This document shows, in pieces, positions 6,412 through 61,345 of a stretch of DNA of 64,000 nucleotides. Source of the stretch: Diadema antillarum (Eukaryota); the NCBI RefSeq assembly GCF_040938485.1, contig NW_027272286.1, forward strand, positions 496,001-560,000, given 5' to 3'. Position numbers and translations under genes: made by a program. Positions within the stretch are counted from its first letter, which is position 1. Every line of letters starts with the position of its first letter. The notes beneath the pieces were generated by a model. It was not told the DNA's origin. It did not search any database and worked only from the letters and a program-made list of their open reading frames with translations.

Positions 6412-7505
6412 TTAACACAGTATTTAAAAGGGTTGAAGTCTTGTCTATCCTCAGAACACTTTGATTTATCCCCTACTGTGCTCTATCCTCCAATCGACAC
6501 ATCATCCAATTGACACATCCACTCCCTGGCGTGCAGTGTTAGGGTGTTTTTATGCTCAACTTTTGTGGGCCATATTCAGGCTTTTGAAGCATTTTTAGTT
6601 CAAGACACAGTGGCGTCCTAGCTATATGAAATGCATTCAAAATGCACATAGAGGTGTGTTTACAATCAGGATTTTTTTTTTTAAATGCCTTTAACAGGGA
6701 GACATATGAGCATACCATGGTTACGATTGGCAAATTCTCTCTAAAACGCATTTAATGGGGAAGCACACACAGAATCACACATATAGAGCGCTTATTCTGA
6801 CGTCATGTCAGTGCCTTTCTGGTTCACATTAAGTAGACGTGTGCAGAACAGCTCGCTACAATAGGGATCTTTAGTTTTCCAAAAATGTGCTATGCATGTT
6901 CAAGGTATTGCCTCTCTCTCAAGCCTACCAAAAAAAAATGATAATAATAACTGGAACAGTTCCCCTGTGAATGGAATTTTGGATCAGCATTTCAATCGCA
7001 AATTGAATATAAGTGGCCCCTTTGTCAGTGATTCAAATTTCTGAAGCCTCAGTATCAGTGAGTGAGGATTATGTAATCTCCCTAATCCCTACTCCGTTGG
7101 GGATTTCCTGAAAGGGTTTTAGGAAATGATGTTTAGTAAATTCTTTCATTGTCTTTGTTTTGGTTTTTGATGAACCAATTAAACAAATACAGATTTTTTG
7201 AAAGTGCGTGCCAGGGCACAAAAAAAAAAGGGTTCAAATGACGTGCTGATCTGTCGGGAAAGTGTGAACAGTCTAGCGTTTCCTTAGACGAATGTGATAC
7301 CCAAAAATGAACACTCAAACACATTGATGCAGTTGTTGCCTGATGTGCGTTGCCATGGCTTTGAGTGCAGAATCTCTGCTTTTAGAAAGCTGTCGAGTGC
7401 AGTGAGTGCAGACGATATGATTGATTGGCGCTGTTGAAAGGTTACGGTGAGTTGACATGTAGAGTTGTTTTATCTGTATTGTTGCAGTCAATTTACAGTC
7501 ATTAA

Positions 7506-7863
7506 AGGGGATGGCTAGTAACTGTTCAGTGGGAATCAGTGGGAATGCTGGGGGATGATTGTTCCAATTCTTGTGGGATTCATTTAAGAGTACATTATAA
7601 ATCTATTGTTGTGTGAAAATTATTTGCTTCAGAATGGTCTCATATTCAAGTAATGTGCAGTGTAATGTTTCCAGGTTAGCATGCCTGTACAGTGAAGGGG
7701 CATTAAACTGCACATTAACTTGAATATGAGACCATTCTGAAGCAAATAATTTTCACACAACAATAGATTTATAATGTACTCTTAAATGAATCCCACAAGA
7801 ATTGGAACAATCATCCCCCAGCATTCCCACTGATTCCCACTGATCAGTTACTAGCCATCCCCT
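7506..7863. mobile_element. Palindromic Kolobok-type MITE
   Basis: ttaa|aggggatggc ... gccatcccct|ttca; ~160-bp arms nearly perfectly inverted around a ~33-bp spacer. Confidence 0.8.
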
Positions 7864-8012
7864 TTCAGTCAACCATAATACAGCCAATCTCATATGAAAA
7901 AGGCCTCATCAGGGAGCAGCCAGGTGGTCTTTACAGACAGGTTCATTATTTAACCTTTACCGTGATCTGAAGGCGAACAAATGCATTGGCCTTCATGGTC
8001 AAGGAGTCTTAA

Positions 8013-8096: not shown

Positions 8097-9433
8097 TCAA
8101 TATCCTGTGTATGGTTGCTATTAGAAAAGCTTCTCTGCCATGTACCTTGTTTAATGCAAGACTATAATGTTACCAGTATTATCTGCATAGCTGCTGCAAA
8201 GAACGATGTCAATTACATTCTGCATCTCACGCGCTATGCTGTGAAAAGCCACCGTTTGTGGTGCAGGTCAAATACAGTTCGATGGTTGGTACTACCAATG
8301 CATTAAATAGCCAATATGTGGTCCATGTACAACTTGTACAGGAGTTTTTGCAAATAGCTTGCACAAGTCTATCATTTCATGCATGGTATGATGTCCTAAC
8401 GGTGCCACTTTGCACCGCCTGATGGCTAGAGGTGACAGTTTGTGGGTTCATTGTATTCCTCATGATTTTTTTTTTTTTTTTTGGGGGGGGGGGGCACATG
8501 CTCATCTGTTTTCAGGCTCCTGATAGGTAGATTCTTGAGAAGTCTTCACTCCATCTCAAAAGACCTGGAGTGAGTTTTTTTTTTTTTTACTAGTATTATG
8601 CCCTTACGGAGTCATCCAGATTCCTATTTCCTGAGGACTCATGAAGACTTTCATAAAGAAATAAAGACTTCCAGTCAAAAAAACCAAGTTTTAACCACGT
8701 TGTATGCACACATATAGTTGCATTATGCAATAGTAAAGTTGACTAACTTGATAAAGCGAGCAAAAGAAGTCAACGGTAGGAGACAGCAGTTGTTGCTGTT
8801 GTTTTTAACCTGGAGAGATTGCAGGATTTTGACATGCTGGGTTTTCCTTATGCTATTAATTACATGAATCTTGCAAGTCTCTGTGTATGTGGGGGCAGGT
8901 GTATCGAGGAAGTGTTTGACAATGTATGACATATACATTATTGCAGTTTGCAGAACTGTAGTGTGATTTCATACACCATTTTTAACAGTAATTAAGATTA
9001 AATTTTAACATCTAATGCATCGGTGACTTACAGAACAACAATAAAACGTGCCTAGGAGGATGTGATTACAATGTCCAAAGTGACATTTGAGGGAGAAAGA
9101 CTGATTACACACATAATTTGTATACATTTTTGCTTTATGTGGTGATACACTGATACATTAATGCAATTACACTAAAAGCCCAAGTGGCATTTTCCCTTTT
9201 GCGCTTATTTCAATTTTAATGGCGTGTGCCTAAAGCACATTAACCAGCGTATTTAATCTCTTTCTCTCTTTCTTTTTCTCTCTCTGTTTATGTCTTTTTC
9301 TTTTTTCTATCTCTCATTCCGTTTGTCTCACCCACACTTATAAACACGCTTTCTCCGTCTCATACATCCTTTCTGTTTCCACCGCCAACTCCCCCCCCCC
9401 CCCCCACCCCTGCAACTTCACTTTCAAATACAG

Positions 9434-9558
9434 GAATTGCATCGCAGGCGAGCAGTTTAGCAGTGAGCACCCCACCCCCAGGCAGCCAGACGCAGCACCA
9501 GCCCCAGTTGTTAATGAGCCCCACGTTACAGGGAGCACAACCTATTCTTGCCAATCAG
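9434..9558 (+). CDS. POU6F2: POU class 6 transcription factor, internal coding exon (first recognisable in window)
   Basis: tacag| acceptor and |gtacat donor; reads (G)IASQASSLAVSTPPPGSQTQHQPQLLMSPTLQGAQPILANQ. Phase 1 in and phase 0 out, matching the next exon. The upstream exon was not identified. Confidence 0.75.
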
Positions 9559-10090
9559 GTACATTATACGTCTTTGGATTTGTATTTGTTTATTGTGTCT
9601 TTGGTTTCTATTCTCTGTGCCTGTTTCTGTCTGTCTATCTGTCTATATAAGTACTTACATGTAATTTGTATATATATATATATATCTACTACACTGTATG
9701 TATTTATGTTTGTATGTCTTTCTGTCTCTTATATGTACCAACATTTGGAGAGAGAGAAAGGGAGAGAGAAATTATTTATTGCTTGTACATTAATAGCACT
9801 TCTACTTGTATGTTTGCATTATTCATTTTTGTCAGCATTTGATGAGTAATTGCTGAACTGAACAATTTGCAGTATGTGTTCAAAATTCTCCTTTGTCCTT
9901 TGTGAGACAGGGACAGATATCGCTTATCCGCCAGGCATTTAGAATGTACACTTTGCGGTAACTCTGGAGACAGACTCTATACATGTGTACTGCAGATGGA
10001 TGACCATGCCAACTCGGTGTTGTGGCAAGAAGGATCAGCCATCAACTCGAATGTAATTTGTTGCTCGCACTCCCTCCCTGTACACTTTAA

Positions 10091-10197: not shown

Positions 10198-11461
10198 CTA
10201 GGACCTTTACAGGGGATCAGACAGAATGACTGTCAAAGATAGATAAAATTTGACCTGTACAGCAGATTACAAGGCTGATGTGTACACTGCATGTGTATTG
10301 GATGACATTGAATAACATTCTGTGTTTCTGTGCTAGATGTGACAATGTAAAAGGTTTTGTCACATACATTGGACAGCTATGAAATTGCGTTCTAGCTGAC
10401 CTTTGATTTAGAATCGTGTTCTTTAGGATTCAGGTTTTTATGCCTCCGCCACAAAGTGGTGCCGGAGGCATTATGTTTTCGGGTTGTCCATCCGTACGTA
10501 CGTCCGTCCGCGTTCGTTTACGCGATAACTTGAGTAATATTGACTGGAATTTTACCAAACTTGGTCCAAGTATAAAGTATGATAAGGCAATTACTTGATT
10601 AGATATTGGGTGAAATCGGCTAAAGGCCAAGGTCAAAGGTCAAGGTCAAATCATGAAATTGTATCCGTTTACGCGATAATTCAAAACTGGATCAAGCAAA
10701 TTTCACCAAGCTTTGTCCGGGGATGATGTATGATAAGACAATTTACTTGATTAGTTTTTGAGTGAAATCGGACAGAGGTCAAAGGTCAAAGATCAAGGTC
10801 AAATCCTAAAATTTATCTGTTTACGCTGTAACTCAAAACTGGACGAAGCAACTTCCACCAAACTTGGTCCAAGGATGAAGTATGATGGGGCAATTAGTTG
10901 AGTAGTTTTGTAGCGAAATTGGCAAGAGGTCAAAGGTCAAAAGGCAAGGTCAAATGCTAAAAATGTTGCTATTTCCCCCATATCTATGCAATGCCCAAAG
11001 GTATTTTCTTGAAACTTTGTGTAGACATGTACTACTGCATGAAGATTCTCCAGAGAGAGTTTCATGTCCTAAGGTCAAAAGGTCAAAGGTAAGGTGAAAA
11101 TGTTACAATTTCTCTTTTCTTGCAAATGGTTCAATGCATCTTCATGGAACTTGGTACATACACATGCACTGACTGACAGGGAATATCTAGGGAATTTAGG
11201 GGTCATGGGTCTATAGTCAGGTGTCAAAGGTCAAGGTCAACTCCTCAAAATTTCACTGTTTATTTTATACTGTAATTACACTTTTTCTTCATACCTTTAA
11301 AATCACTCAATGCATAAACTTATGAAAGGGTCGGTCAAAAGTCAAGTAAAAATCCTCAATTCCCCAAATACATGTACCTGCACTCTTAGACAATTATAGC
11401 AAACCTAGTTCAAGGAAAGTGAACATTCAAAACATTCCTGACAAACCTGTCATTTCAATAT

Positions 11462-11948
11462 TGTTGGGACCGCCGAGTTGGTACCCAAGACAGTTAGAGT
11501 TAAACTCTAAGGGACACAAGAAGAAACCAGGCAACCAGTCATTTCGATGGTTCATGTCTCAAAAGTAGTCTTTTATTCGAGCTCGCAAGATTACATGACT
11601 ATGACAAGCCAGTGCTCATTCCAAGACTGCCTTTTACTCCAGTCAGCGTCCCAAGATATACTCCTCAACACTCCCTCTTAATTTCTTACAACATCAAAGC
11701 ATCATTCATCACCTTCTTGTATACAATGACTGTCTTCTACAGTGACCGTTACCAATGACCATTTGTGGTCTGGTCTGGGGACAGGGAGTCTACTTGGGGG
11801 TGATAAACTCTAGGGGGCTCGTCCGTGGTAAGGGGAAAGGAAGAACCACAGATACAAACAATGTTCTCAGTTAATGTGTCCGCCCATAAGACTTGTCCTA
11901 CCAACTTTCAAGTGGAGTCCCAATTTGCCTAACTCTGGGACCGTAACA
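11462..11948 (-). repeat. 3' LTR
   Basis: Identical by eye to 15887-16373; AATAAA on - at 11572-11577. Confidence 0.95.
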
Positions 11949-11961
11949 CTCTTCCCCCCTT
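11949..11961 (-). promoter_or_regulatory. Polypurine tract
   Basis: AAAGGGGGAAGAG on - immediately abuts the 3' LTR. Confidence 0.85.
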
Positions 11962-14900
11962 TGAAAAAGAGGTATTGTCCGCAATACCAGAATGCGAGAG
12001 AGAAATGTGTTAACGATACATCAAATTTTTGACCCCAAAGAACCTTCCAATTATATAAAATTGTAAATAAATGTCAAATTATAACGGAATATGTTTTTTT
12101 TTTTAAACATTGACGAACCTACTCAAAAAAGTTTTGAAAAAAAAGGGGAACAGAAAAGAAGAAGTGACACAATGACCTTAATACAAGAGAGACATGTTTC
12201 ATAAAAATCTATGCTAACTCTGACAACAGATACGAAAATCTATACTAACCATTCTACGTACAAAGCTTACGCATACTCGCACTTCATGATATCTAGCAAC
12301 AAACTGGAAAATGAAACAAAGAGCACTAACGCCGGCTGAAGAAAAAAAAATGGCACGGAATTACATCTCCCCTATTGGAGACAGGAAACAACATCACTTT
12401 AAAAACAACATAATAATGACCACACCAACTGCATGATGGACAGTGCAGACAGGTGCCGACCGTCTATGGTCACCCGCCTACTAGAATTCCTTATCTATTA
12501 CTCAGACCAGAAGTCGGGCACAAACCATGCAGATGACGGAATTATGTAGCTGGACATTATCAAAATACATCTCAGAGTTATCTTTCCCAAGTTTATGGAG
12601 CAGGCACATGCTAAGTCTGACCTCATGTAACCTCCTATCCTGTGCAGGCTCATGCCAAGGAGAGTGGAATTAGCTACTCTGATTGGTCAGTGAACGCACC
12701 CCTTGTGGACGAATCAAATGCTCAATTGAGGAAAAACATTGAGAAAGGGACAGGAGAGAGAGAAACAGAGGAGGGGAGCTAGAGGAAAGGAAGGGAGAGA
12801 AGCGGAGGGAACTGAGCGGTAAAATTAAAGAGGAAACCCATTTCTCCGAAATAAAAACTCCAAGTATCCAACATGTGTCATGCGCATCAGTAACAACAGT
12901 TTGTATGTACATCAACAAAACGAGTAACTCTACACTGTAACAACGCTCGTGCCCAAGCTAAAACAAAATGAAACACATCAGCAAATTATAATAGTGCTGC
13001 TACAATAAAGAAAAGGATGGTTTTCATCAAAGAGAGCAAAGAAGTGGAAGAACTGAACGAGAGATAGAAATACAAACCGAGTGAGATGAATTGGTGAAGG
13101 ATACATTGAAAAATCGGAGGAAAGGAAGGGAGCAGCGTCTTTGCAATAAAAACAATTAAAAGAAAAGACTGTACTAATAGTAATACACAATACGGAGCAC
13201 CTCCATCAGGGTTTGTAAACTAGAATGTCTGTACCATCCATTTTACGAGATGGAAAATCAAACAAAATGGACCATCCATTTTACAAGATGGATGATCAAA
13301 CAAAGGCAAGACGATTTCTTTTAACATACAACACAGCATTGGTAAAAACGTCAAATCACATTCATGTAATCACAATGCGAAAAAAAAAATGGCACAGCTA
13401 ATGAGCGAGTAGAAGAAATACCTATTTACATAGAGAATGGGGGAGACAGAGGTAGAAATAGAAAGGGAGAGGAAGGGGGAAGAGAGGGGAAAAGACTGCC
13501 TCAACAACAACAAAAGCAAAAAAAAAATGGATACATGTTCGTTTTCCTGTAGGCTCATGAATTATACATCGCTTATTGGCTGTAGGTAATAAAAAAAAAA
13601 TTACACAACAAACATTTTGAACAGGACTTACTGTTCTCATGGCACATACAGCGATCATGACTACGATACTACTACAGTATCTTAGTCACCGAAAAGACAT
13701 TAATCAAGCAGTAAACAAAAATGCATTCTTACAGCGTCCACAATCACATAACGCAACGATAATGGCCAGTCACAACAATCAGAGGCGGCAGAAAGAAAGA
13801 AAAAAAAAAGAGAAATCCTCCAAACATCGTAAAACATTTGCCATGGCCCCTGTGACCCTTTGCAGTCCATTGACTGAGAGAGAGAGAAAAAAATGTGTGC
13901 AGGGGGCGAAGGGAGGGAGAGCCAATAAAACCAACGTGTTAGTTCTCCTTACAGTTCTCCATCACTCATAGTCTTTCTGCAGTACTTTGGCATGATCTAA
14001 GCTAAAACAAGGTTAAAATGTTGTTTATCAGAGCCGACTGATAATCTTAACTCTATTTACAAGTATACACACAAATATAAGCTTAAGTCAAATGAAATAC
14101 TATGCGAACCTCTACGTGTACTTGTACTTTGGGAACCCAATCTGGAAAGTTATTGCTAAGGTACGGCTTCAATCTATCGTGGTGAACCACTTTTGGCTGA
14201 GACTTAATCTGTCTAATCACAAACAGCTGAACATTTATCTTTCTAGTAACAAATCGTTCAGTTTACGTGTTATGACAAATAAAGCAACTTCGGCCACTAT
14301 CTAACAAATTTCGTACGACCAGGGACCAATTGCTGCCTGAAATTCAATCCAGCGAGGCGTCTTTTTCTGAGACGCAGGGCAATATAGCCTCCTTACACCC
14401 ACAAAATTCGTTAAAAAATCGGGAAAAGTTTTCAACTATTGCCAAACCGTGATCAACGGTGATCGATTAATGCGTATCTTCCAGAGTTTTGTGTGATCGA
14501 CATGAAAGACTTACCCTCCACTTAAACTGTGTAAACACTCCTCTCGCTATGTTTTCGATAAACTGTCGCTATATTCCTATATGTATGCTGTTACAAGTTG
14601 GATCATTGCTGCCTGAAAATTTCAGCTATGGCGACTTTGTCGGAGTCGCAGGGCAAGTTACCACTAACAACATACACATCTGAACAACAATGCGCATCAT
14701 TGAATTATTCCTCTTATTCTTCATTTTAGGCACCTTCATCATCATCTTATTGACAACCCTGACAAGTGGGTTTCAATTTCATCTTCATCATGCCGATTTC
14801 ACCATTTTTCATTGTTAACCTTATGCGCAAAATCTTTCATGCAGTTTCTACAGAATATCGAAAACTAACATAAACTGACAATAGCACACAGTCATAGAAC

Positions 14901-15219
14901 GAAAGGAACTCCACAAATGTTTGCTTGCATTAAAGATATGTGTGCAGTTAAGCTACAACACCAGGGTTGAGTGTATAATGATGTGAAACATAATGACAAT
15001 AACTTTTTGGTCCAAACAATAATTGACGGAGAATGAGCACATACAATACCAGTTCCCGAGTCCAATGTTAGACCTTCATGTGCCTGTATGAGGTATATTC
15101 TTGGCCCCAGTGTTCGATTCTTGGCTGTCTTGATTCTCTGTCGCACTCATAGTCGCTAGTCATGTGGATGGTCGTATATGGTCGCTGCATCCTCGTTGCC
15201 ATGGTGATATGTGCCGGGT

Positions 15220-15699
15220 CTATCCGATGTGCTCCCTGTCCAACAAAGATGTATCCTTAGTCGCGATGACAAAGTTATGATATGATCCGTCCATGTTCCT
15301 GCCAGCGCCTGCCATACTCAGCAACCAGACTTGAAGTAGCTCAGCAGAAGTTGTTGTCATCATCGAACCCGTCGCCACTAGCTTGCCTCCATCAGTGCTA
15401 TCTCCATGACTGACGTCCTCGCCTTGGATCATGAAATCCTTGATGACGAAGTTGAATTTGCTACCATCGTATCCAAATGCTTTCAAATGACTTCCAAGAG
15501 AGGAAGAGTTCTGTGTTGACTTTGGTAATGTTTTCCCAAGAAGGCCATGTCTCCCCATCTCCTTTTCTCTGATCACAGTGTCACAGAAAACACTTGCGAT
15601 AACCATTGATCCTTTTTCCGATAATTTCATTCGCTTGTGGGCATGGGCTGCTACAAGAGCTACTGATGCCATCAACAGTATGAGAGTTAGGGCCTTCAT
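15220..15699 (-). CDS. PPIB: Intronless, diverged cyclophilin B (PPIB)-derived ORF, 159 aa, signal peptide, predicted PPIase-dead; functional status unknown
   Basis: [20 protein letters not shown] signal peptide. [10 protein letters not shown] ~ [31 protein letters not shown] ~ [28 protein letters not shown] ~ VSMANAG; LLDREH ~ WLDGKH. Stops before the final strands. The ORF-track start at 15708 is a TTG; the ATG is at 15699. Confidence 0.85.
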   Translation of the reverse strand: [159 protein letters not shown]

Positions 15700-15872
15700 C
15701 GTGTTCAATGTCCTTGAGTTGAGAGTTATTTAGCAAATCTCATACTGGTAATCATAGTTCAAGCAAGTCGCCGGCTATTGCCTTGTCCTAGCTCCTCCCT
15801 TCCTCACAACATGCAAACTTGCCGTGTTGCTTCGAGATGGCGTCTTGTCCGAAATTAGATAATAACCGCTTT

Positions 15873-15885
15873 ACCGCTGCCACCA
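15873..15885 (-). promoter_or_regulatory. Primer-binding site complementary to tRNA-Leu 3' end
   Basis: The - strand TGGTGGCAGCGGT is complementary to ...ACCGCTGCCA-CCA, the 3' end of eukaryotic tRNA-Leu(AAG/TAG). Confidence 0.85.
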
Positions 15886-15886
15886 T

Positions 15887-16373
15887 TGTTGGGACCGCCG
15901 AGTTGGTACCCAAGACAGTTAGAGTTAAACTCTAAGGGACACAAGAAGAAACCAGGCAACCAGTCATTTCGATGGTTCATGTCTCAAAAGTAGTCTTTTA
16001 TTCGAGCTCGCAAGATTACATGACTATGACAAGCCAGTGCTCATTCCAAGACTGCCTTTTACTCCAGTCAGCGTCCCAAGATATACTCCTCAACACTCCC
16101 TCTTAATTTCTTACAACATCAAAGCATCATTCATCACCTTCTTGTATACAATGACTGTCTTCTACAGTGACCGTTACCAATGACCATTTGTGGTCTGGTC
16201 TGGGGACAGGGAGTCTACTTGGGGGTGATAAACTCTAGGGGGCTCGTCCGTGGTAAGGGGAAAGGAAGAACCACAGATACAAACAATGTTCTCAGTTAAT
16301 GTGTCCGCCCATAAGACTTGTCCTACCAACTTTCAAGTGGAGTCCCAATTTGCCTAACTCTGGGACCGTAACA
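15887..16373 (-). repeat. 5' LTR
   Basis: Identical by eye to 11462-11948; followed on - by a 1-nt spacer and the PBS. Confidence 0.95.
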
Positions 16374-16475
16374 ATATTTTGCCAATTATGTGAAACTGTC
16401 ATCACACATTGTGAAGACATTGTACTATACACCTATTGGGAGAATCATGCGTTATTTTTTTTTTTGGTGGGGGGG

Positions 16476-17533
16476 TTTTATGCATCTGCCACGAAGTATC
16501 GCCGGATGCATTATGTTTTTGGGTTGTCCATCCGTCCGTCCTTCCGTCCGTCTGTCCATAATCAATTTTGTGGACAGCATTTAACTTAAGAACCATTTGA
16601 GGTATCCAAATGAAACTTGGCATATGTATGTATGAGTGGGCGAAGTTGTACCTGTCAACTTTTGGTTGCATAAGGTCAAAGGTCAAGGTCAAATTCTTAG
16701 ATTTCACTTTTTTTCCCATGTCTATGCAATACCTGAAGGTAAATTTCTTGAAACTTAAGTGTTAACATGTATTACCAAATAAAGATTCTCCAGGGAAAGT
16801 TTTGGGCCATTGAGTCAAGGGTCAAAGGTCAAGTGAAAATGCTAAAACTTCACTTTCTTCTCCATATCTCTGAAATGGCACAAGGTGTCTTCATGAAACT
16901 TATACATATGCAATTGCATGTACTGCCTGACAGTGATTCTCTTGGGAGTTTGGGGTCATAGAGTCAAAGGTCAAGGGTAAAAAAATCAGTTCAATTCTAA
17001 AAATTTCACAATTTCCCCCATGGTAGCAATGCCTGAAGTTATTTTCTGTAAACTTTAATAGTGTATACATTCATAACCAGATAGAACTTGTCTTGGAAAG
17101 TTTTGGGCTGTGGGGTCAGATGTCAAGGGTCAAAAGAAAATGCTAAGATTTTACTTTCTTCGCCCAAATCTCAGAAATAACTCAAGGTATTATCATGAAA
17201 CTTACATATGCATGTGCATTGTACTGCCTGACAGTGATTCTCCTGGAAAGTTTGGGGCCATGGGGGTCAAGTGTCAAATGTCAGTTGAAAATGCTAAAAT
17301 CCCCAATACCTGCTCTCTGTAAACAATTTAAGCCATCCATCCAAATGAAACCTTGTTCACGAAAAGTACACACTCAACACATTTGTGACAAACATGTCAT
17401 TTTGATATATTGCCAATTATGTGAAATTGTCATTGATCTCACATTGCCAAGACGTACTTTAGACCTACAGCTGTATTGGGAGAACCATGAATCATGACAG
17501 AGGCATACCAGTCCCCATAGTGATATTTCTAGT
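16476..17533 (+). mobile_element. Second, diverged copy of the same HINE-like family
   Basis: Same 5' IR, microsatellite and aggtca cores; 3' subterminal gaggcata followed by a short hairpin and ctagtt end. Confidence 0.7.
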
Positions 17534-20266: not shown

Positions 20267-20351
20267 TTAAAGTGTCAGTACAGCAAAAAGTCCATTTCCC
20301 ATCCATCCCCTTTCTCTATCTCTCTGTCTCCTTTTTTGTTCACTACCACAG

Positions 20352-20573
20352 CTCTCAGGGGCCCAGCAGCTGTTGACCATCCCGTCCAACGGTGGCCAGC
20401 AGCAGATACTGACCCTGCCCATCACCAACGCGGCCGGGCAGCAGCAGATCCTGACCATTCCCGTCACCCTGGCCCAGGGGGCTGGGGGCATTCAGTTCCT
20501 GATTCCCACTGGTACCGGCGGGCAGCTTCTCGCCTCCCCGAACCTCGCTAACCTTGCAGCCATGCCGTCACAG
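20352..20573 (+). CDS. POU6F2: POU6 coding exon (Q/G-rich QQILTLP repeats)
   Basis: ccacag| ... |gtatac; 74 codons LSGAQQLLTIPSNGGQQQILTLPITNAAGQQQILTIPVTLAQG...AMPSQ; GC-rich; phase 0/0. Confidence 0.85.
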
Positions 20574-21269
20574 GTATACGTACCCTCAGAGCCTCAGATG
20601 TAAAGTCCCCACATATCGCAGAAAGTGCCACATGAAAATGTGTTACTCTGCTCTGATAAACACTTCATACTGTACCTTTTAAAAGAGCAGTTCTGGACCA
20701 GTTGAAAGTATGATTTCAATCACGATTCAAATCACACTTTTCTATTGTGTGTGAGTGAGACTAATTTCACACATTACCATGACTATTCATACATTGTACA
20801 TGTGTGAACCTTTCAAATGATGATTAATCCATGTTTTATAAAGTCCACAGTACACTCAACCCAATTGTTGACCCCTGAATTTGTCTCTATAAGATGCCAA
20901 GAGATGCATGCATGTGGTTTTGTTCTGCTCTGACACAAAATGTCTGGACTCTGGACATCCCTGTGTTTGTGTAGACCCAATTTCAAAATGTAGTGCTGTA
21001 TGGTGACAAGTAATCAGCTACAGATCTGTTAATCTCTATAATCCTAATTTTTGCAGATGTCTGTATTTTCCCATGTGTATTCCAATAATAATCTGTGTTT
21101 AGGCAAGTGAGTTTAAAGGTGCACACACGAACATACAGTACACACATAGACAGATACACAAAATACATATGCAGACCTACAGACACAAACAGACAGACAG
21201 ACACGCAAGCATACCTGCAAAATTAACCCAGGTGGTCACTTCGGCTTCATTGTTTCCGCCATCTTGCAG

Positions 21270-21519
21270 GTATTGCCGTCGGCCCCGGCCGCCATCCCCA
21301 GCATCACCAGCAGCACCAACGTGGTCTCCTCCGCAGCGCATCTTGCCAAATCCAACCACATGACCTCACCCACCGCACCCCTCCCTCCGGTCTCCGTCCT
21401 GACGGGGCAGACCGGCCTGGGCACACTCCCCCTCCCCCAGGTGCTGATGGGGGCGGGGGCGCAGGTCCTCTCCGTCTCCACGCCGACCAGCAGTACATCC
21501 AGCACAGCTTTCAAAACCA
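21270..21519 (+). CDS. POU6F2: POU6 coding exon (S/T/P-rich)
   Basis: ttgcag| ... |gtgagt; VLPSAPAAIPSITSS...STAFKT; 250 nt, phase 0/1. Confidence 0.85.
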
Positions 21520-22039
21520 GTGAGTGTGTTTTCTTTCTATTTTCGCTGGCTCCCGTTTCAAAATAGGGAGATCGTGTTGCCTCCTGAACTTCAAGACAAA
21601 GTCTTTTGAGCGCAGGAAACTGCGACCGTGTTCTACTGCCCTCTTTTCTATCTTTTCTGTCTTTTCTGTAATTCTTTCTTTTTTTCGTGTTGATTTTTAT
21701 CTTCACCCCTCCCCCATTCTCTTCTTTCATCATCTCAATCTTTTTTCTTCTCTTTTCTTCTCCAGTTTGTCTTTTTTTCTCTCTCTCTTCTCTTTTCAGC
21801 CATTTCTGTCCTCATCTTCTTTACGATTAAAATGTACACTACTTGAATTATTATGGGATGTGTATTTGAGTGAATTGTATGTCGTTACCATTGTCAATAG
21901 GTACAAACGGCTTGCTCACACATTAAAACAAATATGTCACTAGTTCAACCAAGTCTAGTCAGAAGCATTGCTTGAATATTTGAAAAATTCCATGTTCATC
22001 GCTTTATGTGTAGGTGATTAGAGTCTCACAGATTAGATA

Positions 22040-25957: not shown

Positions 25958-26148
25958 GTGAAATGGATTGATTTTGATTTTGAGATCACCCTGTGAAATA
26001 GATTGATTTGATTTTGAAATCTTGTGAAATAGATTGATTTTGATTTTGAGATCACATGAAATAGATTGATTTGATTTTGGGATCATGACATGAAATGGAT
26101 TGATTTTGACTGTGAGATCATGACGTCAAATGATTGATTTTGATTTTA
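25958..26148. repeat. ~30-bp minisatellite (tgaaatRgattgattttgattttgagatca), 6-7 copies
   Basis: Direct reading; ends about 30 nt before the POU6 acceptor at 26177. Confidence 0.8.
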
Positions 26149-26177
26149 CAATATCTTTGTTGTCCTTTCCCCCCCAG

Positions 26178-26420
26178 CCGGGCTGAACACGGCACAAGGC
26201 ACCGTCATATCTCACATAGCGGCGGCCCAGGGCTCTCAGAGCAGCATCGCCCAGATCCTGCCCAGCCAGCTGGTGCGGAGCTCTGTGGTCTCCAGCCAGT
26301 CCGCGGCGGCCCCCGTCGGGGTCACGCAGGTCGGGGGTCAGCCGGGCCACCAGGTCGTCGTCTCCACGACGACGGCAACGACGGGCGGCAACCACGTGGC
26401 CGGAGGGTTGGCGAGCCCAG
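26178..26420 (+). CDS. POU6F2: POU6 coding exon
   Basis: ccccag| ... |gtaaag; GLNTAQGTVISHIAAAQG...GGLASP; 243 nt, phase 1/1; GC-rich. Confidence 0.85.
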
Positions 26421-27665
26421 GTAAAGGTACTGTCCGGGCTCCATTACTTGGGATGGGGCTTCACGATTTTTACCAAACTCAATGCGACGCAAATTTCGAC
26501 AAACAAACGAAACAATCAAACAATTGATAATTAACTAGAGAGGAAAGAAGTGAAATTATGCTTTCGGAAAATTTAGTTTGTGTCTCCCACCCACTGACAA
26601 ATTTTTTGTTTGCTGTCCGCGATAGATTCCTTCAACTGACCACCCTAACAAATGGACATTTGTGTCCCTTTCACGTCAGCAGTGTCGCGTGTCTCCATTC
26701 CGGACTGACGACACCGAAATCAAAGTGTCCTCCTCCCCTTCTTGCATGGCTTGACGCACTAACACTGGGTTTATTAACCCCCTTCTGCTCCCACTTACCA
26801 CCTACTCCGCACAGCCAGTCGACCCTCCTTCACACAGTTTTGCAGCAATATTTGGCACTTGTGAAACAGGCTCTGATCTCAATTGACTCTAGTCATTGTA
26901 CTTTTGCCCCTCAAAGAAATCAAACATCAAACTTTTATGGAAGTTACCACTAAGTTGTAATGCTAAACATCTACCAAGTCACAAGCATGTGGCAGCAAGA
27001 AGATAATTGATTTCATCATTACTGCAATTCAAGTAATGAACTTTAGTCCTGATTCTCTAGTCAACCTTGTGCATCTAGGCAGATCATCTTAAAATTTTAC
27101 TCTCTTCTTACGGGTCAGATTCATGAAAATGATTGGGTTTATTCTATTTCGATTGCTACTGGAATTACAGTTAACATGACAGGAGTAACTCCAGCCTTAA
27201 TGCACAGAATATCTCTGCACTTGTCTCATCCACATTTCGATTGAAAATCTACTGCAAAATTAAGATAATACAAATTTTTATGCAACCGAAATACAGTGAA
27301 GATCAAATCATGACATGTTAAGTCAGAGATATGTGGTTTAATGTCCCTCCTGCCCCACAAGAAATCCAGTGTTAACTGTCCAAGCCATGCCTCCCAAATG
27401 CAGCAAAGCCCAGAAGTCCCCATCCCAAAAATACCCTACATACAACTACGGAGCCAGGTTGATGTTGTGTACATGTCTTTAGCATCTGTGTCAGTATATG
27501 TGTGTGTGTGTCTGTCTCATGCATGAGATTAACTCTATGCAATGCATATATTTCATGAATGCTCGTATATTGTGCTTGTTTTGTGTAGACATGATTTGAT
27601 GTGGTGCATGTTTTCAACAGTGAGAGTGTGGCCCGAGAAGACGCAAGTGTGCTTTGTAGTAATTA

Positions 27666-32287: not shown

Positions 32288-32964
32288 GTAGAGTATCAAC
32301 CTATTGAGAGTATTGAGTTATCATATAGTGATAATGAAATTGATTCTGTCTGCCCCAGCAGAAGGGCCCTAACGTGAAATTTCAACCCCCAAAATGGGAT
32401 TTTGGTTTGCGACATTATTTGACAGTTTGGAAGCTCTTTCATATAATGTAACCATCATTTTGTGTGTGTGTGTGTGTGATTTTGTGGGCACACTAGCCCT
32501 AGGGCCCATCACTAGACCCATCTAGTCTTTCTTCAATCTAGAGTGTGCAGCAAAACTCAATGGTGCAAGTCTAAATATAACAAGGTGACCGTTTCTGCAA
32601 AAGCATTTCAATAGCTCAGAATTGGATAGGGTGAAGAACTTTTCTCTTAGAGGCAACTTGAAGACTCTTAAAGATTGAACATGGTGCAAAAGATTGATAA
32701 ATTTGTTCTTATTTCTCAAATGTTGGAGAAAGGCAGCCACTTGAGTTCAGGAAATTGGCTGGTGTTGTTAGCTGTGAAATCAGAATTCATTATCATGTTT
32801 GGCCTCTTATTTTTTGAAGTTCAAAGAATTTTGTATTTGGTTAGCGTTACTTGAGACCCATCTCATTGTGTTCACTGCCCTTCCTTGAAATATACGTTGG
32901 ATATTGATGGTTGAACAGGATATGTCATAAGCGTGTTTGATACCTTTTTTTTCACAAATGGTAG

Positions 32965-33364
32965 GTTTGAGAAGCTGGACATCACGCCGAAGAGTGCGCA
33001 GAAGATCAAGCCGGTCCTGGAGCGGTGGATGGCGGAGGCGGAGGAGCGGCACAAAAACGGCCTTAACCAGCTCACCGACTTCATCGGCAGCGAGCCTGTG
33101 AAGAAGCGCAAGCGGCGCACGTCCTTCACGCCCCAGGCCCTGGAGTACCTCAGCCGCCACTTCGAGAAGAACACGCACCCGACAGGCGCCGAGATGACGG
33201 CGCTAGCCCAGGAGCTGAACTATGACCGGGAGGTGATCCGCGTCTGGTTCTGCAACAAGCGCCAGGCGCTCAAGAACACAATCAAGAAGTTGAAGGCTGC
33301 CGAGGCGACGATAAACAACAACGCGGAGGACTCTGAGTCCGCCGTGAGTCCGGAGCATGTGTAG
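32965..33364 (+). CDS. POU6F2: POU6 last coding exon: end of POU-S, linker, POU homeodomain, stop
   Basis: FEKLDITPKSAQKIKPVLERWMAEAEE...KKRKRRTSFTPQALE...EVIRVWFCNKRQALKN is diagnostic of class VI POU. The single invertebrate gene is co-orthologous to POU6F1/F2. TAG at 33362-33364. Confidence 0.97.
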
Positions 33365-54438: not shown

Positions 54439-55881
54439 AACAAGGAAAAGTAGAAATTACGCGGTGCGTAAAATATGTCCCCGCCGGAAGTAGCATTTTG
54501 TAGCCAATGTACAATATAGGTAAAAAATCAAGGTCAAAGGTCAAAGAAGTCAAAGGTCAAAATTCTGTGTAGAAGTTTTGAAGCCCTCACCTAGTGCCAT
54601 CACAAAAAGCAAACGGAATCGAAATCGGGTTAGAAATGGCGAAGGAGTAGCATTTTGTAGCCAATGTACAATATAGGTCAAAAATCAAGGTCAAAGGTCA
54701 AAGAAGTCAAAGGTCAAAATTCTGTGTAGAGGTGTTAGCCCTCACCTAGTGCCATCACATAAAGAAAACGGAAATGAAATTGGGTTAGAAATGGCAAAGG
54801 AGTAGCATTTTGTAGCAAAATGTACAATATAGGTCAAAAATCAAGGTCAAAGGTCAAAGAAGTCAAAGGTCAAAATTCTGTGTAGAAGTTTTGAAGCCCT
54901 CACCTAGTGCCATCACATAAAGCAAACGGAATCGAAATCGGGTTAGAAATGGCGAAGGAGTAGCATTTTGTAGCAAAATGTACAATATAGGTCAAAAATC
55001 AAGGTCAAAGGTCAAAGAAGTCAAAGGTCAAAATTCTGTGTAGAAGTTTTGAAGCCCTAACCTAGTGCCATCACATAAAGCAAACGGAATCGAAATCGGG
55101 TTAGAAATGGCGAAGGAGTAGCATTTTGTAGCAAAATGTACAATATAGGTCAAAAATCAAGGTCAAAGGTCAAAGAAGTCAAAGGTCAAAATTCTGTGTA
55201 GAAGTTTTGAAGCCCTCACCTAGTGCCATCACATAAAGCAAACGGAATCGAAATCGGGTTAGAAATGGCGAAGGAGTAGCATTTTGTAGCCAATGTACAA
55301 TATAGGTAAAAAATCAAGGTCAAAGGTCAAAGAAGTCAAAGGTCAAAATTCTGTGTAGAAGTTTTGAAGCCCTCACCTAGTGCCATCACATAAAGCAAAC
55401 GGAATCGAAATCGGGTTAGAAATGGCGAAGGAGTAGCATTTTGTAGCCAATGTACAATATAGGTCAAAAATCAAGGTCAAAGGTCAAAGAAGTCAAAGGT
55501 CAAAATTCTGTGTAGAAGTTTTGAAGCCCTCACCTAGTGCCATCACATAAAGCAAACGGAATCGAAATCGGGTTAGAAATGGCGAAGGAGTAGCATTTTG
55601 AAGCAAAATGTACAATATAGGTCAAAGGTCAAGGTCAAAGGTCACAACTGAAATTCTGTGTAGAAGTTTCAAAGCTCCCATGTAGTGCTATCATATAAAG
55701 CAAACAGAATCAAAATTGGCTCATAAATGACAGAGAAGTAGCAAATTGAACATTTTGATCACACACGGACGCACAGACAGACAGACGGACGGACAGACGG
55801 ACGGACGGACACACGGACACACACACGTACGGAGCCCGTTTCATAGTCCCCTGCTCGAACTCGTTCAGCGGGGACAAAAAA
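54439..55881 (-). mobile_element. HINE-like element (third family) with about 8 tandem core units
   Basis: On -: tgtccccgc subTIR plus IR, (gtcc/gtct)n microsatellite, core array, gcggggaca subTIR, tacgc-acc-gcgta hairpin and cttgtt end. Confidence 0.85.
54491..55750. repeat. Tandem array of 155-158-bp units inside the HINE
   Basis: Units start at 54491, 54648, 54803, 54961, 55119, 55277, 55434 and 55591 (last one diverged). Confidence 0.95.
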
Positions 55882-56954: not shown

Positions 56955-57184
56955 GAGAAAAGCAGAGGTTAACCTTGTCTAATACCTTCACGTGTCTCAG
57001 TTCTTGCCCTCTATATTTCAGTTTGTGTAGCTTGCAAGTACACAGTAAAGGAAACCTATGGAATATATTTGAAACAAATGCCACATAACTCCCTTTCACT
57101 ATCTCTAATGATATCTAAAGGTTCTCAGTTTATCCACCAGTACAACATATAACACAGAGGTATACAAATATCAAATGAGCATAC

Positions 57185-59825
57185 TTGTTTCCTGACGGCT
57201 CCTTGTAGCTGACCATGCCTTTTGTCCTGCGCGCCCTTCTCTGGGGCACCTCCGGGGCATTCTCCTTCGTGGCATCCCCTGCAGGAACATCTCCCTTGCC
57301 CCCTGTGCGCACCACGTCATCCCCACGGCTCTCCTCGCCAGCTGCTAATGTGTTGGTCACATCTGTCATGACCTTTGACACAGCATCGGTCCTGGAGACC
57401 TTGTGCGGCTTTTCCTCCCGGTCGCCGCTGGAGTTGTCTTCGGCCGGCCTCTTCTTGCTCTTGCTGGTGTTGATACCTTTCCTCCCAGCTGCTTCAACAG
57501 CATCGGCTGTTTGGCGATCACTTGTTTCCCGGGGCAAGGGGGCATGCCGATCTTGCTGAACTCTTTCGCGGTTCTCAGTTGCTGTATCAGAAGATGCTTT
57601 TCTGGCTACACCCTGGGTCGACTCTTTGTCATGGCCAATTTCATCATCAAAGCATTTCGAGGGAATCGAATACTGTTCGGTAGCCTTCTTTGAGTTCGAA
57701 CTTTTCTTTCCACCCTCATTCAGCGCCTTACGGTTTTGATAGGAATCATCATTGCCATGAAAGTTTTGGGGCTTGTGAGAAATTTGCATCCGAGCACAAT
57801 CATTCTCTGGCTGAACATCCAAATCAAATGTTACATTCAGGTTGGATGTCTCTGTCTGTTTGCCTGACTTCAGGATTGTGGTACGTCTTGGGACTGGCTT
57901 AAGTTTGCCCTGAGCATTACTCACTGACACCAGATGATCTATGTCTTCCAGGACATTGTGGGTAACATTAAGGCTTTTCTGCCCTCCTTTACAATCAGGT
58001 ACATCATCATCACGCAAATCCTTCAGTTTCATGTCAGAAACCTTTGAGCTTCTTTTCTTCTCTGTCTCTTTGCCAAGACTCAAGCTGCGGCTTTCACTCT
58101 CAGCATCCTCCAATTCCAAGAAAAATTGCATCTTTGAGAGCTTGCGTTTGTTGGAAGACTTTCGCACGAGGGGTCTTGTGATCAAATCGCTCAGACTCTC
58201 CCGCTCCTCCTTTTGGTTGCTGCTCTTCCGCGATGGCAGGGAGGATCCGATCTTGCTCCTCCTCTCGGGGTTGGTGACCTCGCTCAAGTAGGAGGCATCG
58301 AGGTTATTCAGCTCTTCCAGGAGAGCCTTCTCCGACGTCATCCTCTTGGCCTCCGGATTCCTCGGGGTGACAACCGATTTTGATTTTCGGGACTTTCTCT
58401 TGATCACACCATGTTTCTCCACATTCTCTTGGCCTTTTGAGCTTTGAGTATGCGCCAGTTCTGTGGTTTTTGCAGAAGATGGAGAATTTCTCACTGATCT
58501 GTTGTGGTCATCGTCCCCTTCAGGCATTCTTGCCTCCTGGCTGGCCATCGCATCAGGAGCGGGCTGGGTCTGAGGATGCGGTTTGTGCAGGCGGGAAGGG
58601 GTTGGATGGGAAAAACTGTCCCCAACTGACAGATCAAAGATGGACATCTGCGCAACATCCCTGTCATCCGTGTTATCCCGCATCTCCTTCTTGCTCCTAG
58701 CCTTCGAGGGGATCTTTGAGCTGTGTTTGACCAGTCTCAGGGATTTTGATTTGTCCTTGAGTTTCCCTTTTTTCATTACAGGCAACTTACTCTTCTTCGA
58801 AGTCGGCTGACTGTTGGTGTCTTCCTCTCCGATCTCTAAGTTGTTATCACCTTTGCTCATGGCCTCAACACCTCTATCCCTGCCAGATTCCAAGACTGAA
58901 ATGTGTCCGAGGGCCGTGCTGGTCATCTCCATATCTGCCAGTCTGTAATCCGATTTATTTCCGTTGGAATCTTCTTTCTCTTTCTGCAGCTGACTGCACT
59001 TGTCCTGCCTACTACTTGAGTCTGTGGAGTTCCCTTTACCAGAACTGCCATCTACTTTGTGCTCAATCTCTTCAGCCTGGGCGATCACCGATGCATCCTT
59101 TCCACTGGAATTGTTCTCTTTGCCCGAGTGCTCTGGCTGTCCTTCACCAATAATCCCACCAATTTCAGCCTCTGTACGCTCACTCGCCGGCTCGTCTTTT
59201 GTTTCACTGACGCCCAACTGGACTGCCACCTCCCGATCCTCATGACTGTGCTTGACAAATGTGCCCCTCCTCTTCGACTGTCTTTTGCTTCTCCTGCGAC
59301 TTGCTGTCCCATCATTTAGGTCCTCATCTGGCCCCACTTCCATGGCTTCCAAGTCTGCCTCCATCTCCTCCTCCACTAAATTCTGCTGAGGAGCAACCAT
59401 TTCCTCCTCTTTTCCCCGTCGCCCACTCTTTTTCCTTCTCTCCTTGCCACGCTTTTCCTCCGCATCGTCATTCTTGCATCCATCCTTTCCATCGTTCTTC
59501 TGGTCTAAGGGCTTCCCACCTGTGCGATCTTTCTTTGACTGCCTGCTGCGCCTCTTTCGCGGAACCCTTACATCTTCCATCATCTCAACTTCATTTCCAT
59601 CTGTGCCAGCATGCGCAGCGTCAAATAAATCTGCATTTGAGTCGAGCGATGAATTCCTACGGACAGGATTCTCTGCCGCTGCCTCATTCAGCATCGTTTC
59701 AGTCTCCTCGGCCACCTCCTTGATCTCAGAATCTGCTGTGAAGTTGGTTCCAGGATCCTCGCGTGAGATTGGCATTGGTAACAGCTCCTCAGGCGAGATG
59801 TTTCTGGTATCCCTTCTGGCCGTCA
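57185..59825 (-). CDS. SGO1: Shugoshin giant central exon (disordered, charged) ending in first half of the SGO motif
   Basis: Lies within the 908-aa ORF; tttcag| ... |gtatgc; ends RRARRTKGMVSYKEPSGN(K); 2641 nt, phase 1/2. A large central exon is typical of shugoshins. Confidence 0.9.
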
Positions 59826-60637
59826 CTGAAATATTGGACGGGAAGTGATAATGCAATCAGTACTACACTCATTAATTTGCATACTTTTTTGATAGCCTTT
59901 AAAAGATTAATTTATCGAGTAATTCCAGCATCTGACAAAACTTTCAAAACTGACAAGACCTTGCCAAAATGCATTCTCATTAGATGTCAGCATCACTGGC
60001 AGCAACTATGATTTTAAATCACAGCTTTAGCTTGAGATATGAAATATTTAATTGCATAATGATTTTGGTACCATTTGCAAATATTACAAAGTAAGTCTAT
60101 CATCACAGAGCAAAATTCAACCTTTCCAATGACCCCTCACTTGCTACATAACAAGGAATCTCAAATTCACAAGAATGGACGTAACTTGTTTTGCCGTCAA
60201 ACCCTTTATATATTGACTTTAATAATAGGTTGGTTTTTAAAGTGCACCAGAACTTTAAAAAGTCAAATAAAGAAATCAAGAATTTGCATATATGAAAGAG
60301 TCCACACTCTTGTCACCAAAAGTACATCATTTGCACGATAATTGCATAAACTGCAGCTAAAACTAGCACCTTTGCTGTCGTTAGATGACCCTTGCCTCTT
60401 TCCATTTTGGTTGCTGCTCCTGTTTTAAGAATGCACACAGTGAGGTGTATTGCTGGAAAGCAATGTTCATATCAGCTTTCTATCAACAACTTGGCATTAT
60501 AGTAAATTACATTAGCATAACACAAGAAGCTGAATGTCCACATACGGCCTTCTGTATTGACCTTCGCAGAGTGCAGCAACAATACAAGTAATGAAAAAAA
60601 AAATCAAACATGGTGGTTGAAAGGTCAAGATAAGTAC

Positions 60638-60871: not shown

Positions 60872-61345
60872 AACAAGGAAAAGTAGAAATTACGCGGTGC
60901 GTAATATATGTCCCCGCCAGAAGTAGCATTTTGTTGCAAAATGTACAATATAGGTCAAAAATCAAGGTCAAAGGTCAAAGAAGTCAAAGGTCAAAATTCT
61001 GTGTAGAAGTTTTGAAGCCCTCACCTAGTGCCATCACATAAAGCAAACGGAATCGAAATCGGGTTAGAAATGGCGAAGGAGTAGCATTTTGTAGCCAATG
61101 TACAATATAGGTCAAAAATCAAGGTCAAAGGTCAAAGAAGTCAAAGGTCAAAATTCTGTGTAGGAGTTTTGAAGCCCTCACCTAGTGCCATCACATAAAG
61201 CAAACGGAATCGAAATCGGGTTAGAAATGGCGAAGGAGTAGCATTTTGTAGCATTTTGATCACTCACGGACACACGCACAGACACACACACGTACGAAGC
61301 CCATTTCATAGTCCCCTGCTCGAACTCGTTCGGCGGGGACAAAAA
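60872..61345 (-). mobile_element. Second copy of third HINE family with 2 core units
   Basis: Same termini as 54439-55881; core units start at 60924 and 61082. Confidence 0.85.

Follow-up and report, generated by a model that had tools for sequence, protein, structure and literature searches.

The window, a 64,000-nucleotide stretch of contig NW_027272286.1 of Diadema antillarum, carries on its minus strand a recently inserted, hemizygous LTR element of 4912 bp (Table 1), the interior of which contains neither gag nor RT. The LTR pair with TG...CA ends, the target-site duplication (TSD), the primer-binding site (PBS) and the polypurine tract (PPT) of Ty3/gypsy LTR retrotransposons are all present and, judged from its sequence, the element is a non-autonomous derivative of this group. 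Between the LTRs lies a cassette composed of a spliced host cyclophilin B fragment and a doubled RNA structure, which has likely moved between helper lineages. The reading put forward here, the case for which we regard as evenly balanced, is that of a recent non-autonomous insertion mobilised in trans and equipped with a helper-switching cassette, the frame of which is kept for translation in cis.

Table 1. Features of the element and of its target site in the window
Feature	Position	Strand	Remark
Left TSD, ATAT	11458..11461	.	single ATAT in the empty allele
3′ LTR, 487 bp, TG...CA	11462..11948	-	no difference from the 5′ LTR
PPT, ahead of the 3′ LTR	11949..11962	-	
3′ untranslated region derived from the autonomous helper	11949..14118	-	about 95% identical
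Integrase C-terminus remnant from helper A	14121..14244	-	89.5% identity to helper DNA
Three-helix RNA structure, copy 2	14319..14394	-	
Three-helix RNA structure, copy 1	14595..14668	-	homologue within helper pol genes
Non-coding cassette part common to families A–D	14299..15214	-	65–81% identity by stretch
159-codon ORF	15220..15699	-	signal peptide and truncated, catalytically broken cyclophilin B; spliced host exons 1–4
5′ leader in common with helper A	15814..15886	-	
PBS, directly after the 5′ LTR	15873..15885	-	presumably of tRNA-Leu type
5′ LTR, 487 bp	15887..16373	-	
Right TSD, ATAT	16374..16377	.	

In pairwise comparison the LTRs lie inside a 489-bp block with zero differences, and the TSD, PBS and PPT were all located intact, in agreement with the initial annotation, which had also described the insertion as recent and possibly polymorphic. 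The latter proposal was borne out by contig C274, in which both flanks were matched at about 96% and joined via a single ATAT; the element sequence was absent from the 20 kb of this contig that were inspected. The empty site on the other haplotype shows that the insertion is hemizygous and did not arise in the assembly. Compared with each of the other full-length LTRs that were scored, both LTRs of this locus show 96–98% identity; being identical to each other yet different from all these, they do not represent a collapsed repeat. A collapsed-repeat origin of the LTR identity, which had been raised as a possible objection, is thus refuted and its chance is virtually nil, as the TSD, the clean empty allele, the LTR variant private to this locus and the many copies with the same anatomy elsewhere all speak against it. 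Contigs of four sequencing runs cover the family, and among those listed none bridges the LTR–flank junction with 31 letters on each side. A joint of 16373 to 11950 in the run contigs does not represent a circle, as it arises from the LTR that was omitted from the compared stretch. LTR pairs without any difference were present in 7 of 16 independent family-A copies. LTR identity is the least unusual feature of the element; it stands out, rather, by its cassette, by the likely switching of this cassette between helpers, and by the sharing of an RNA structure.

Autonomous helper copies agree with the element in LTR, leader and 3′ region, and contain open gag and pol in the order gag, PR-RT-RH-IN; in a weakly supported tree, helper and cargo LTRs are intermingled. 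Mobilisation in trans, as suggested earlier, is supported by these helper-type copies, which are likely to be the ones that mobilise the element. The claim that the interior is free of gag and pol holds for gag and RT but not for integrase, as the 14262–14086 segment matches Integrase_p58_C (Pfam, E = 1.1e-5, under the curated cut-off). Nor is the element coding-less as had been stated, since in addition to this remnant the ORF at 15699–15220 matches the Pfam family Pro_isomerase (E = 1.3e-8). An Rfam scan of the element (hammerhead, SRP, and others) gave three weak matches, none at gathering score.

The 645–1149 part of element A could be aligned contiguously over the host exon junctions 1/2, 2/3, and 3/4, with the parental exons joined without introns. 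By this alignment, the ORF is a retrocopy of the spliced exons 1–4 of host cyclophilin B, very probably captured by template switching; host PPIB exon 5 had no match in the non-coding cassette of family A. The ORF retains an N-terminal signal peptide (recognised by hydropathy alone), while the active site and the C-terminus are gone: the stop lies approximately 40 residues short of the domain end, the catalytic Arg is missing in A, B, B2, and D and the Gln in C (residues that we place by CypA numbering), and stretches of 22 and 43 core codons have been deleted in frame among the cargo ORFs. Neither an intact set of catalytic residues nor the complete eight-stranded barrel of a functional cyclophilin B was found. 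AlphaFold gave no confident fold for the cargo protein (pLDDT 46 despite the inclusion of 48 aligned cyclophilins; the pLDDT of 35 obtained with a shallow cargo-only alignment is uninformative). Upstream of the cargo start codon lie further, short ORFs. No LTRs flank the intron-less cyclophilin A-like genes on contigs C152, C129, and C935, and these are unrelated.

Tens of cargo copies with the same anatomy occur at other sites. Although no blastn match was obtained among the LTRs of families A–D, these families have one cassette in common, its 3′ junction and a compensated frameshift being likewise shared. The helper pols differ at 69–76% of four-fold sites, compared with 39% (A–C, p = 8e-4) and 32% (C–D, p = 2e-6) for the cassette, while the A–D contrast was not significant (56% in the cassette versus 69%, p = 0.20). 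As a further point against the reading put forward here, the cassette tree branches in the same way as the helper tree, C and D being closest. Since the helper pols are synonymously saturated and the cassette is not, the cassette likely switched helpers, and recombination is the likely way in which it did so. These comparisons also support the earlier view that an old cargo resides inside young LTRs. No helper of family B was found in the genome searches; a candidate at C1167:540715-550577 proved to be a B copy with an insertion.

The reading frame of the cargo has been maintained to an extent that is hard to attribute to chance. Indels in the ORF are in frame in 16 of 21 cases (counted by eye) and four of the remaining five form compensating pairs, whereas in the shared non-coding DNA only 12 of 49 are multiples of the frame (p = 1e-4). 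In neutral simulations, 0 and 1 of 20,000 sequences were stop-free, the mean being 13–14 stops. These results largely refute the view that the ORF is a neutral passenger, open by chance after a single capture and preferentially found in open families, and we consider it very improbable, even though the overall dN/dS (0.82–0.86) is not different from 1, the ORF is broken in 9 of the 38 dated copies, and the protein search was biased to open frames, so that the broken copies D2 and E escaped it. However, families D and B2, which were reached via non-coding DNA, have the ORF open over 124–132 codons. Copies with a broken ORF are older (LTR divergence with a median of 0.56% versus 0.16%; 9 versus 29 copies; p = 0.003 in the de-duplicated test, where three C104 copies with one flank in common were counted once; p = 0.029 and Fisher p = 0.17 in an earlier version including duplicates), indicating that the frame decays after insertion. 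This decay, the hemizygosity of the present copy, and the location of the examined copies between LTRs with TSDs make host-domesticated cyclophilin B paralogues hardly credible, despite the PPIase B-like names given to several copies by NCBI; no fixed LTR-free orthologous copies were seen in this genome. The full frame is not essential, since a frameshifted 127-codon variant sits at two independent sites. An apparent fifth family, E, with a 60-codon ORF at five loci, turned out to be a single truncated copy that was multiplied together with its flanks and therefore gives no evidence for the spreading of a short ORF.

The truncated cyclophilin could act in trans as an ER-resident or secreted pseudo-enzyme accessory, such as a capsid-binding or defence-blunting decoy, under element-level selection. 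Hints of protein-level function are given by the comparison within families C and D (dN/dS 0.51, p = 0.011) and by 12–18% of sites that look constrained (p = 0.014–0.04); furthermore, compensated frameshifts restore the reading of the C-terminal block, and open orthologues of 159–163 aa are found under public names in a second Diadema species. Yet dN/dS reaches about 1.08 when C/D are left out, a positively selected site class was not detected, and the losses of catalytic residues, domain end, core segments and predicted fold described above are difficult to reconcile with such a protein, thus we regard this explanation as unlikely, if still worth considering. Alternatively, translation might serve only RNA stability or export, through ribosome coverage and avoidance of decay, with the signal peptide being incidental. 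The open frame with near-neutral amino acids fits this, as does the dN/dS of the signal peptide (0.84–0.88), which is no lower than that of the remainder. On the other hand, its hydrophobic, uncharged core was kept in all six lineages, an outcome seen in about 0.1% of neutral simulations (by a criterion that counts stops too), a hydrophobic stretch also precedes the RNA motif in the helper pols, and the long 3′ tail behind the stop persists regardless, making this explanation quite improbable. We favour somewhat the inference that what is selected is the translation of the ORF and not a function of its protein.

The covarying three-helix RNA motif (76 nt) is 98% paired, three of its pairs are altered on both sides, and it was equalled in none of 500 shuffles. 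One copy is found in each pol of helpers A, C, and D and in that of family F, and two copies in cargo elements, where they lie 550–830 nt after the ORF stop; in the helpers the motif is inside the pol ORF. In all four pols, the 19-residue window of highest hydrophobicity (KD 1.9–2.8) was found 71–97 codons upstream of the motif, while no such window above KD 0.94 is present in the gags; this pol stretch may be transmembrane-like. In the literature listings searched, nothing was found on this pol motif, nor was any cyclophilin-bearing LTR element. A role of the RNA structure in packaging or localisation is about as plausible as its absence. In the mechanism we propose, translation of the cargo ORF in cis would favour entry of the RNA into helper particles, and the signal peptide probably would do so by directing the element RNA to the ER through SRP; that this routing is the reason for the kept frame is offered tentatively, by analogy. 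A more specific and rather doubtful version is that of a satellite cassette that persists by passing from one retrotransposon lineage to another and has reassembled the RNA-delivery module of its helpers: the captured host signal peptide substitutes for the membrane segment of helper pol ahead of the RNA structure, and SRP brings the RNA to where particles are assembled, the ORF being selected for translation and not for its protein.

LARDs, such as barley Sukkula and the similar Dasheng, are large, lack gag and RT, are mobilised in trans and have conserved, structured internal RNA. The element resembles them in its length of over 4 kb, its non-autonomy without gag and RT, its likely mobilisation in trans and its conserved internal RNA structure, but differs in its short, helper-derived LTRs, and its internal domain is not devoid of coding capacity, as it contains the integrase remnant and the 159-codon ORF. 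The label LARD-like given to it initially is therefore not appropriate, since the cargo ORF is open and its frame maintained across four families. TRIMCyp and viral cyclophilins have roles at the host–retroelement interface, where the captured cyclophilin described here also belongs, and TRIMCyp was among the PDB matches of the cargo ORF; however, the cargo is an ER cyclophilin B and not A, is truncated and broken, and has an element, not a host restriction gene, as its carrier. With LTR retrocopies of the maize Bs1 kind the present element shares the partial spliced host mRNA in sense orientation within LTR-element sequence, secondary retrotransposition and shared copy junctions. Tan et al. 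(2016; PMC5131818) describe Drosophila LTR-mediated retrocopies as non-autonomous elements with 1–5 copies, in contrast to the tens of copies found here, spread over four families that have different helpers and LTRs that cannot be aligned; the frame kept without overall amino-acid constraint and the doubled, pol-derived RNA structure are further differences. According to Doh et al. (2014; PMC3945221), yeast Ty1 RNA is routed to the ER by SRP, with Gag as the SRP substrate, and is packaged in trans. The proposed likeness to these ER-nucleated Ty1 retrosomes is translation-coupled SRP targeting and packaging without cis preference, but Ty1 is a Ty1/copia element of yeast, and the candidates here would be a captured host signal peptide in the cargo and a pol linker in the helpers.

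The single capture present in four lineages represents a natural experiment, in which the frame, the signal peptide and the doubled RNA structure were kept, while enzyme activity and fold were lost, and the features kept and lost name candidate cis requirements. How non-autonomous LTR elements succeed in being packaged and persist through the turnover of their helpers is poorly understood. The analysis also brought to light, in pol of a Ty3/gypsy clade, an RNA structure and a transmembrane-like segment for which the literature searches gave no earlier description, and revealed transposon cargo behind several sea-urchin genes with public "PPIase B-like" names. As for the insertion, it can be used as a presence/absence marker.

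The element, a non-autonomous Ty3/gypsy retrotransposon, is bordered by ATAT duplications on both sides; its 5′ LTR is followed by a PBS and its 3′ LTR preceded by a purine tract. The identical 487-bp LTRs, TSD, PBS and PPT of the initial annotation were all recovered. The 1.75-Gb assembly contains both haplotypes of the locus: contig C1398 carries the window, while contig C274, approximately 96% identical to both flanks (about 2% substitutions), joins them by a single ATAT without element sequence. This empty allele shows that the insertion is hemizygous, as the suspicion of a polymorphic insertion had anticipated. Zero differences in 487 bp bound the LTR divergence at ≤0.6%. Of 102 candidates from the LTR search, 40 were scored and yielded 41 matches. 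Seven of 16 independent copies of the same family (family A) lacked any LTR mismatch; the LTR identity is real but not unusual, and the youth of the element is typical of its family. The TSDs of families A–D (B–D being further LTR families with the same cargo) are 4 bp long, with a strong bias to ATAT, ATAC, GTAT and GTAC.

Features of the window and of the related families
Feature	Position	Strand	Description
Element	11462-16373	minus	4912 bp
LTR pair	11462-11948, 15887-16373	minus	487 bp each, no difference
ORF	15699-15220	minus	159 codons; matches cyclophilins, best cyclophilin B/C
Three-helix RNA motif, two copies	14595-14668, 14319-14394	minus	within noncoding cassette
Target repeat	10433-11461, 16378-17300		very high copy
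Related 157-158-bp arrays	54489-55644, 60922-61253
POU + homeodomain exon	32915-33364	plus
Exon-like frames with POU gene	20271-20603, 21150-21566, 26144-26527, 9244-9849
Low-complexity frame	57130-59856	minus	908 codons; no Pfam match
MITE-like inverted repeat	7504-7865		148 bp, 99% complementary
Family B			LTR 613 bp, element 3.9 kb
Family C			LTR 928 bp, element 4.7 kb
Family D			LTR ~1155 bp, element 5.7 kb

The interior had been regarded as coding-less, which is contradicted by the ORF and an integrase remnant. From 5′ to 3′ it consists of a leader common to autonomous copies, the ORF, a noncoding cassette part of about 0.9 kb, the integrase remnant (124 bp) and a 3′ region of 2.2 kb that shares 95% identity with autonomous copies. 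In the autonomous copies bearing the same LTR, gag (zinc knuckle; resembling Ty3 capsid) and pol (PR-RT-RH-IN) are both open, and cargo-type and helper-type LTRs are mixed in a weakly supported tree. The comparison with LARDs holds for size and dependence but fails on their no-coding criterion; in its working the element resembles Bs1-type retrocopy elements. One helper-type copy contains a non-LTR element with endonuclease and RT (L033:2102-5107).

In the host, cyclophilin B is encoded by five exons, and the gene is present on two allelic contigs. The cargo runs through exon junctions 1/2, 2/3 and 3/4 in one contiguous alignment with 61–69% identity, and the match stops late in exon 4; the ORF is thus a spliced, truncated cyclophilin B retrocopy. 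Public proteins include 97% identical homologues under D. antillarum names and open 159–163-aa homologues from D. setosum (90–92% identical); none of the best 120 profile matches was a cargo-type protein with a species name outside Diadema. Nine such ORFs of the two species (P0001-P0005, P0014-P0016, P0018) are publicly named as PPIase B-like genes.

Families B, C and D were reached by a genome protein search (56 matches) and a noncoding cassette search. Their LTRs and those of family A gave no blastn match to each other; the ORFs agree in start context, stop region and 3′ junction and share a compensated frameshift, which marks a single capture of the cassette. Helper-type copies exist for families C and D, and none was found in the genome for B. 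The helper pols are 50–67% identical with saturated four-fold sites (69–76% differ), whereas the cassettes differ at 39% of such sites between A and C (p = 8e-4 vs. helper pols), 32% between C and D (p = 2e-6) and 56% between A and D (p = 0.20). Given this lower divergence, the cassette probably postdates the separation of its helpers and was passed from one to another. Co-divergence of cassette and helpers at unequal rates, which would agree with their matching branching orders, is the weaker option. Five loci (L136-L138, L141, L142), about 99% identical over approximately 10 kb including flanks, represent a segmental duplication that contains one truncated cargo copy.

Among the copies examined, the full-length frame was present in 11 of 20 for family A, 19 of 21 for B and 2 of 4 for C. 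No internal stop occurred in six representative lineages, whose tree spans about 2.9 substitutions per codon; neutral simulations were stop-free in 0 and 1 of 20,000 cases. Counted by eye on the lineage alignment, with the dead copies D2 and E kept outside, 16 of 21 ORF indels were in frame, four formed two compensating pairs and one, in family D, disrupts the last codons; in the shared noncoding DNA, 12 of 49 were multiples of three (p = 1e-4). Dating covered 38 independent copies, after removal of 8 rows that were allelic or duplicate and of 4 that lacked an LTR pair or a start; in this set, broken frames belong to older insertions (median LTR divergence 0.56%, n = 9, vs. 0.16%, n = 29, for intact ones; p = 0.003). 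The catalytic residues are lost, 22 core codons are missing in C/D and 43 in the B2 lineage, the overall dN/dS is 0.82–0.86 (p = 0.15–0.31 against 1), and AlphaFold (pLDDT 46) is confident only for the N-terminal helix. Full length is dispensable, since a frameshifted variant of 127 codons is found at two independent sites. We infer from these comparisons that selection acts on the frame and little on the protein, although dN/dS is 0.51 for C/D taken alone (p = 0.011) and a small share of sites is constrained (p = 0.014–0.04), both of which count against a purely neutral protein. Each of the six lineages has kept a signal peptide that is hydrophobic and without charge, as in about 0.1% of neutral simulations; its dN/dS equals that of the remaining ORF.

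In 18 instances of the RNA motif, 98% of cells pair and three pairs change on both sides; no shuffled or slid control approached it, by paired cells or by covariation score. The structure was derived from the tested sequences, and their relatedness raises the apparent strength of the shuffle test. Trained only on cargo copies, a model detects the motif in the pol genes of helpers A and C (39–54 bits). Searching the genome for the pattern yielded 64 matches, and 0 with the reversed control; all 14 inspected of 19 new places lie within Ty3/gypsy pol or the cargo cassette and show further compensatory changes in an alignment fitted to the model. The motif was absent elsewhere in the window and in non-element loci among 50 sources, and had no Rfam match. 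In each of the four autonomous pols, the 19-residue window of highest hydrophobicity falls within the RNase H-integrase linker, 71–97 codons before the motif; three gags tested had no comparable window. The linkers of L044, L094, L133 and L144, representing four autonomous families, carry a transmembrane-like segment, often with two windows, after which the motif reads as PCxS. The passages of PMC13524379 consulted on this bridge region mention neither. Downstream of pol, autonomous families F and D have extra open frames of 258–378 codons (L144:1978-2769, L143:6837-7970, L133:6372-7145).

A translated hydrophobic segment followed by RNA structure, in helpers and cargo alike, suggests that element RNA may be routed to the ER by SRP, coupled to translation. 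The precedent is Ty1, where such routing has been demonstrated and the element's proteins package RNA in trans (PMC3945221). Cyclophilin B mRNA would have been captured by template switching inside the particle and secondary retrotransposition, an established route (PMC5131818). Helpers likely provide Gag, RT and integrase, recombination likely renews the LTRs, leader and 3′ region of cargo elements, and the cassette would retain what helpers cannot give in trans. The literature listings searched and the passages of PMC13524379 contained no description of the cassette, RNA motif or pol segment. The novelty lies in a cassette that probably hops between helpers and whose ORF is maintained though nearly unconstrained; the identical LTRs are ordinary.

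An intron of the POU/homeodomain gene may contain the element in antisense orientation, with candidate exons upstream of 11462. The repeat targeted by the element has 152-bp tandem units and a CCGT microsatellite head, which we take to be Helentron/HINE-like in anatomy. The end of the low-complexity frame is similar to a shugoshin C-terminal motif.
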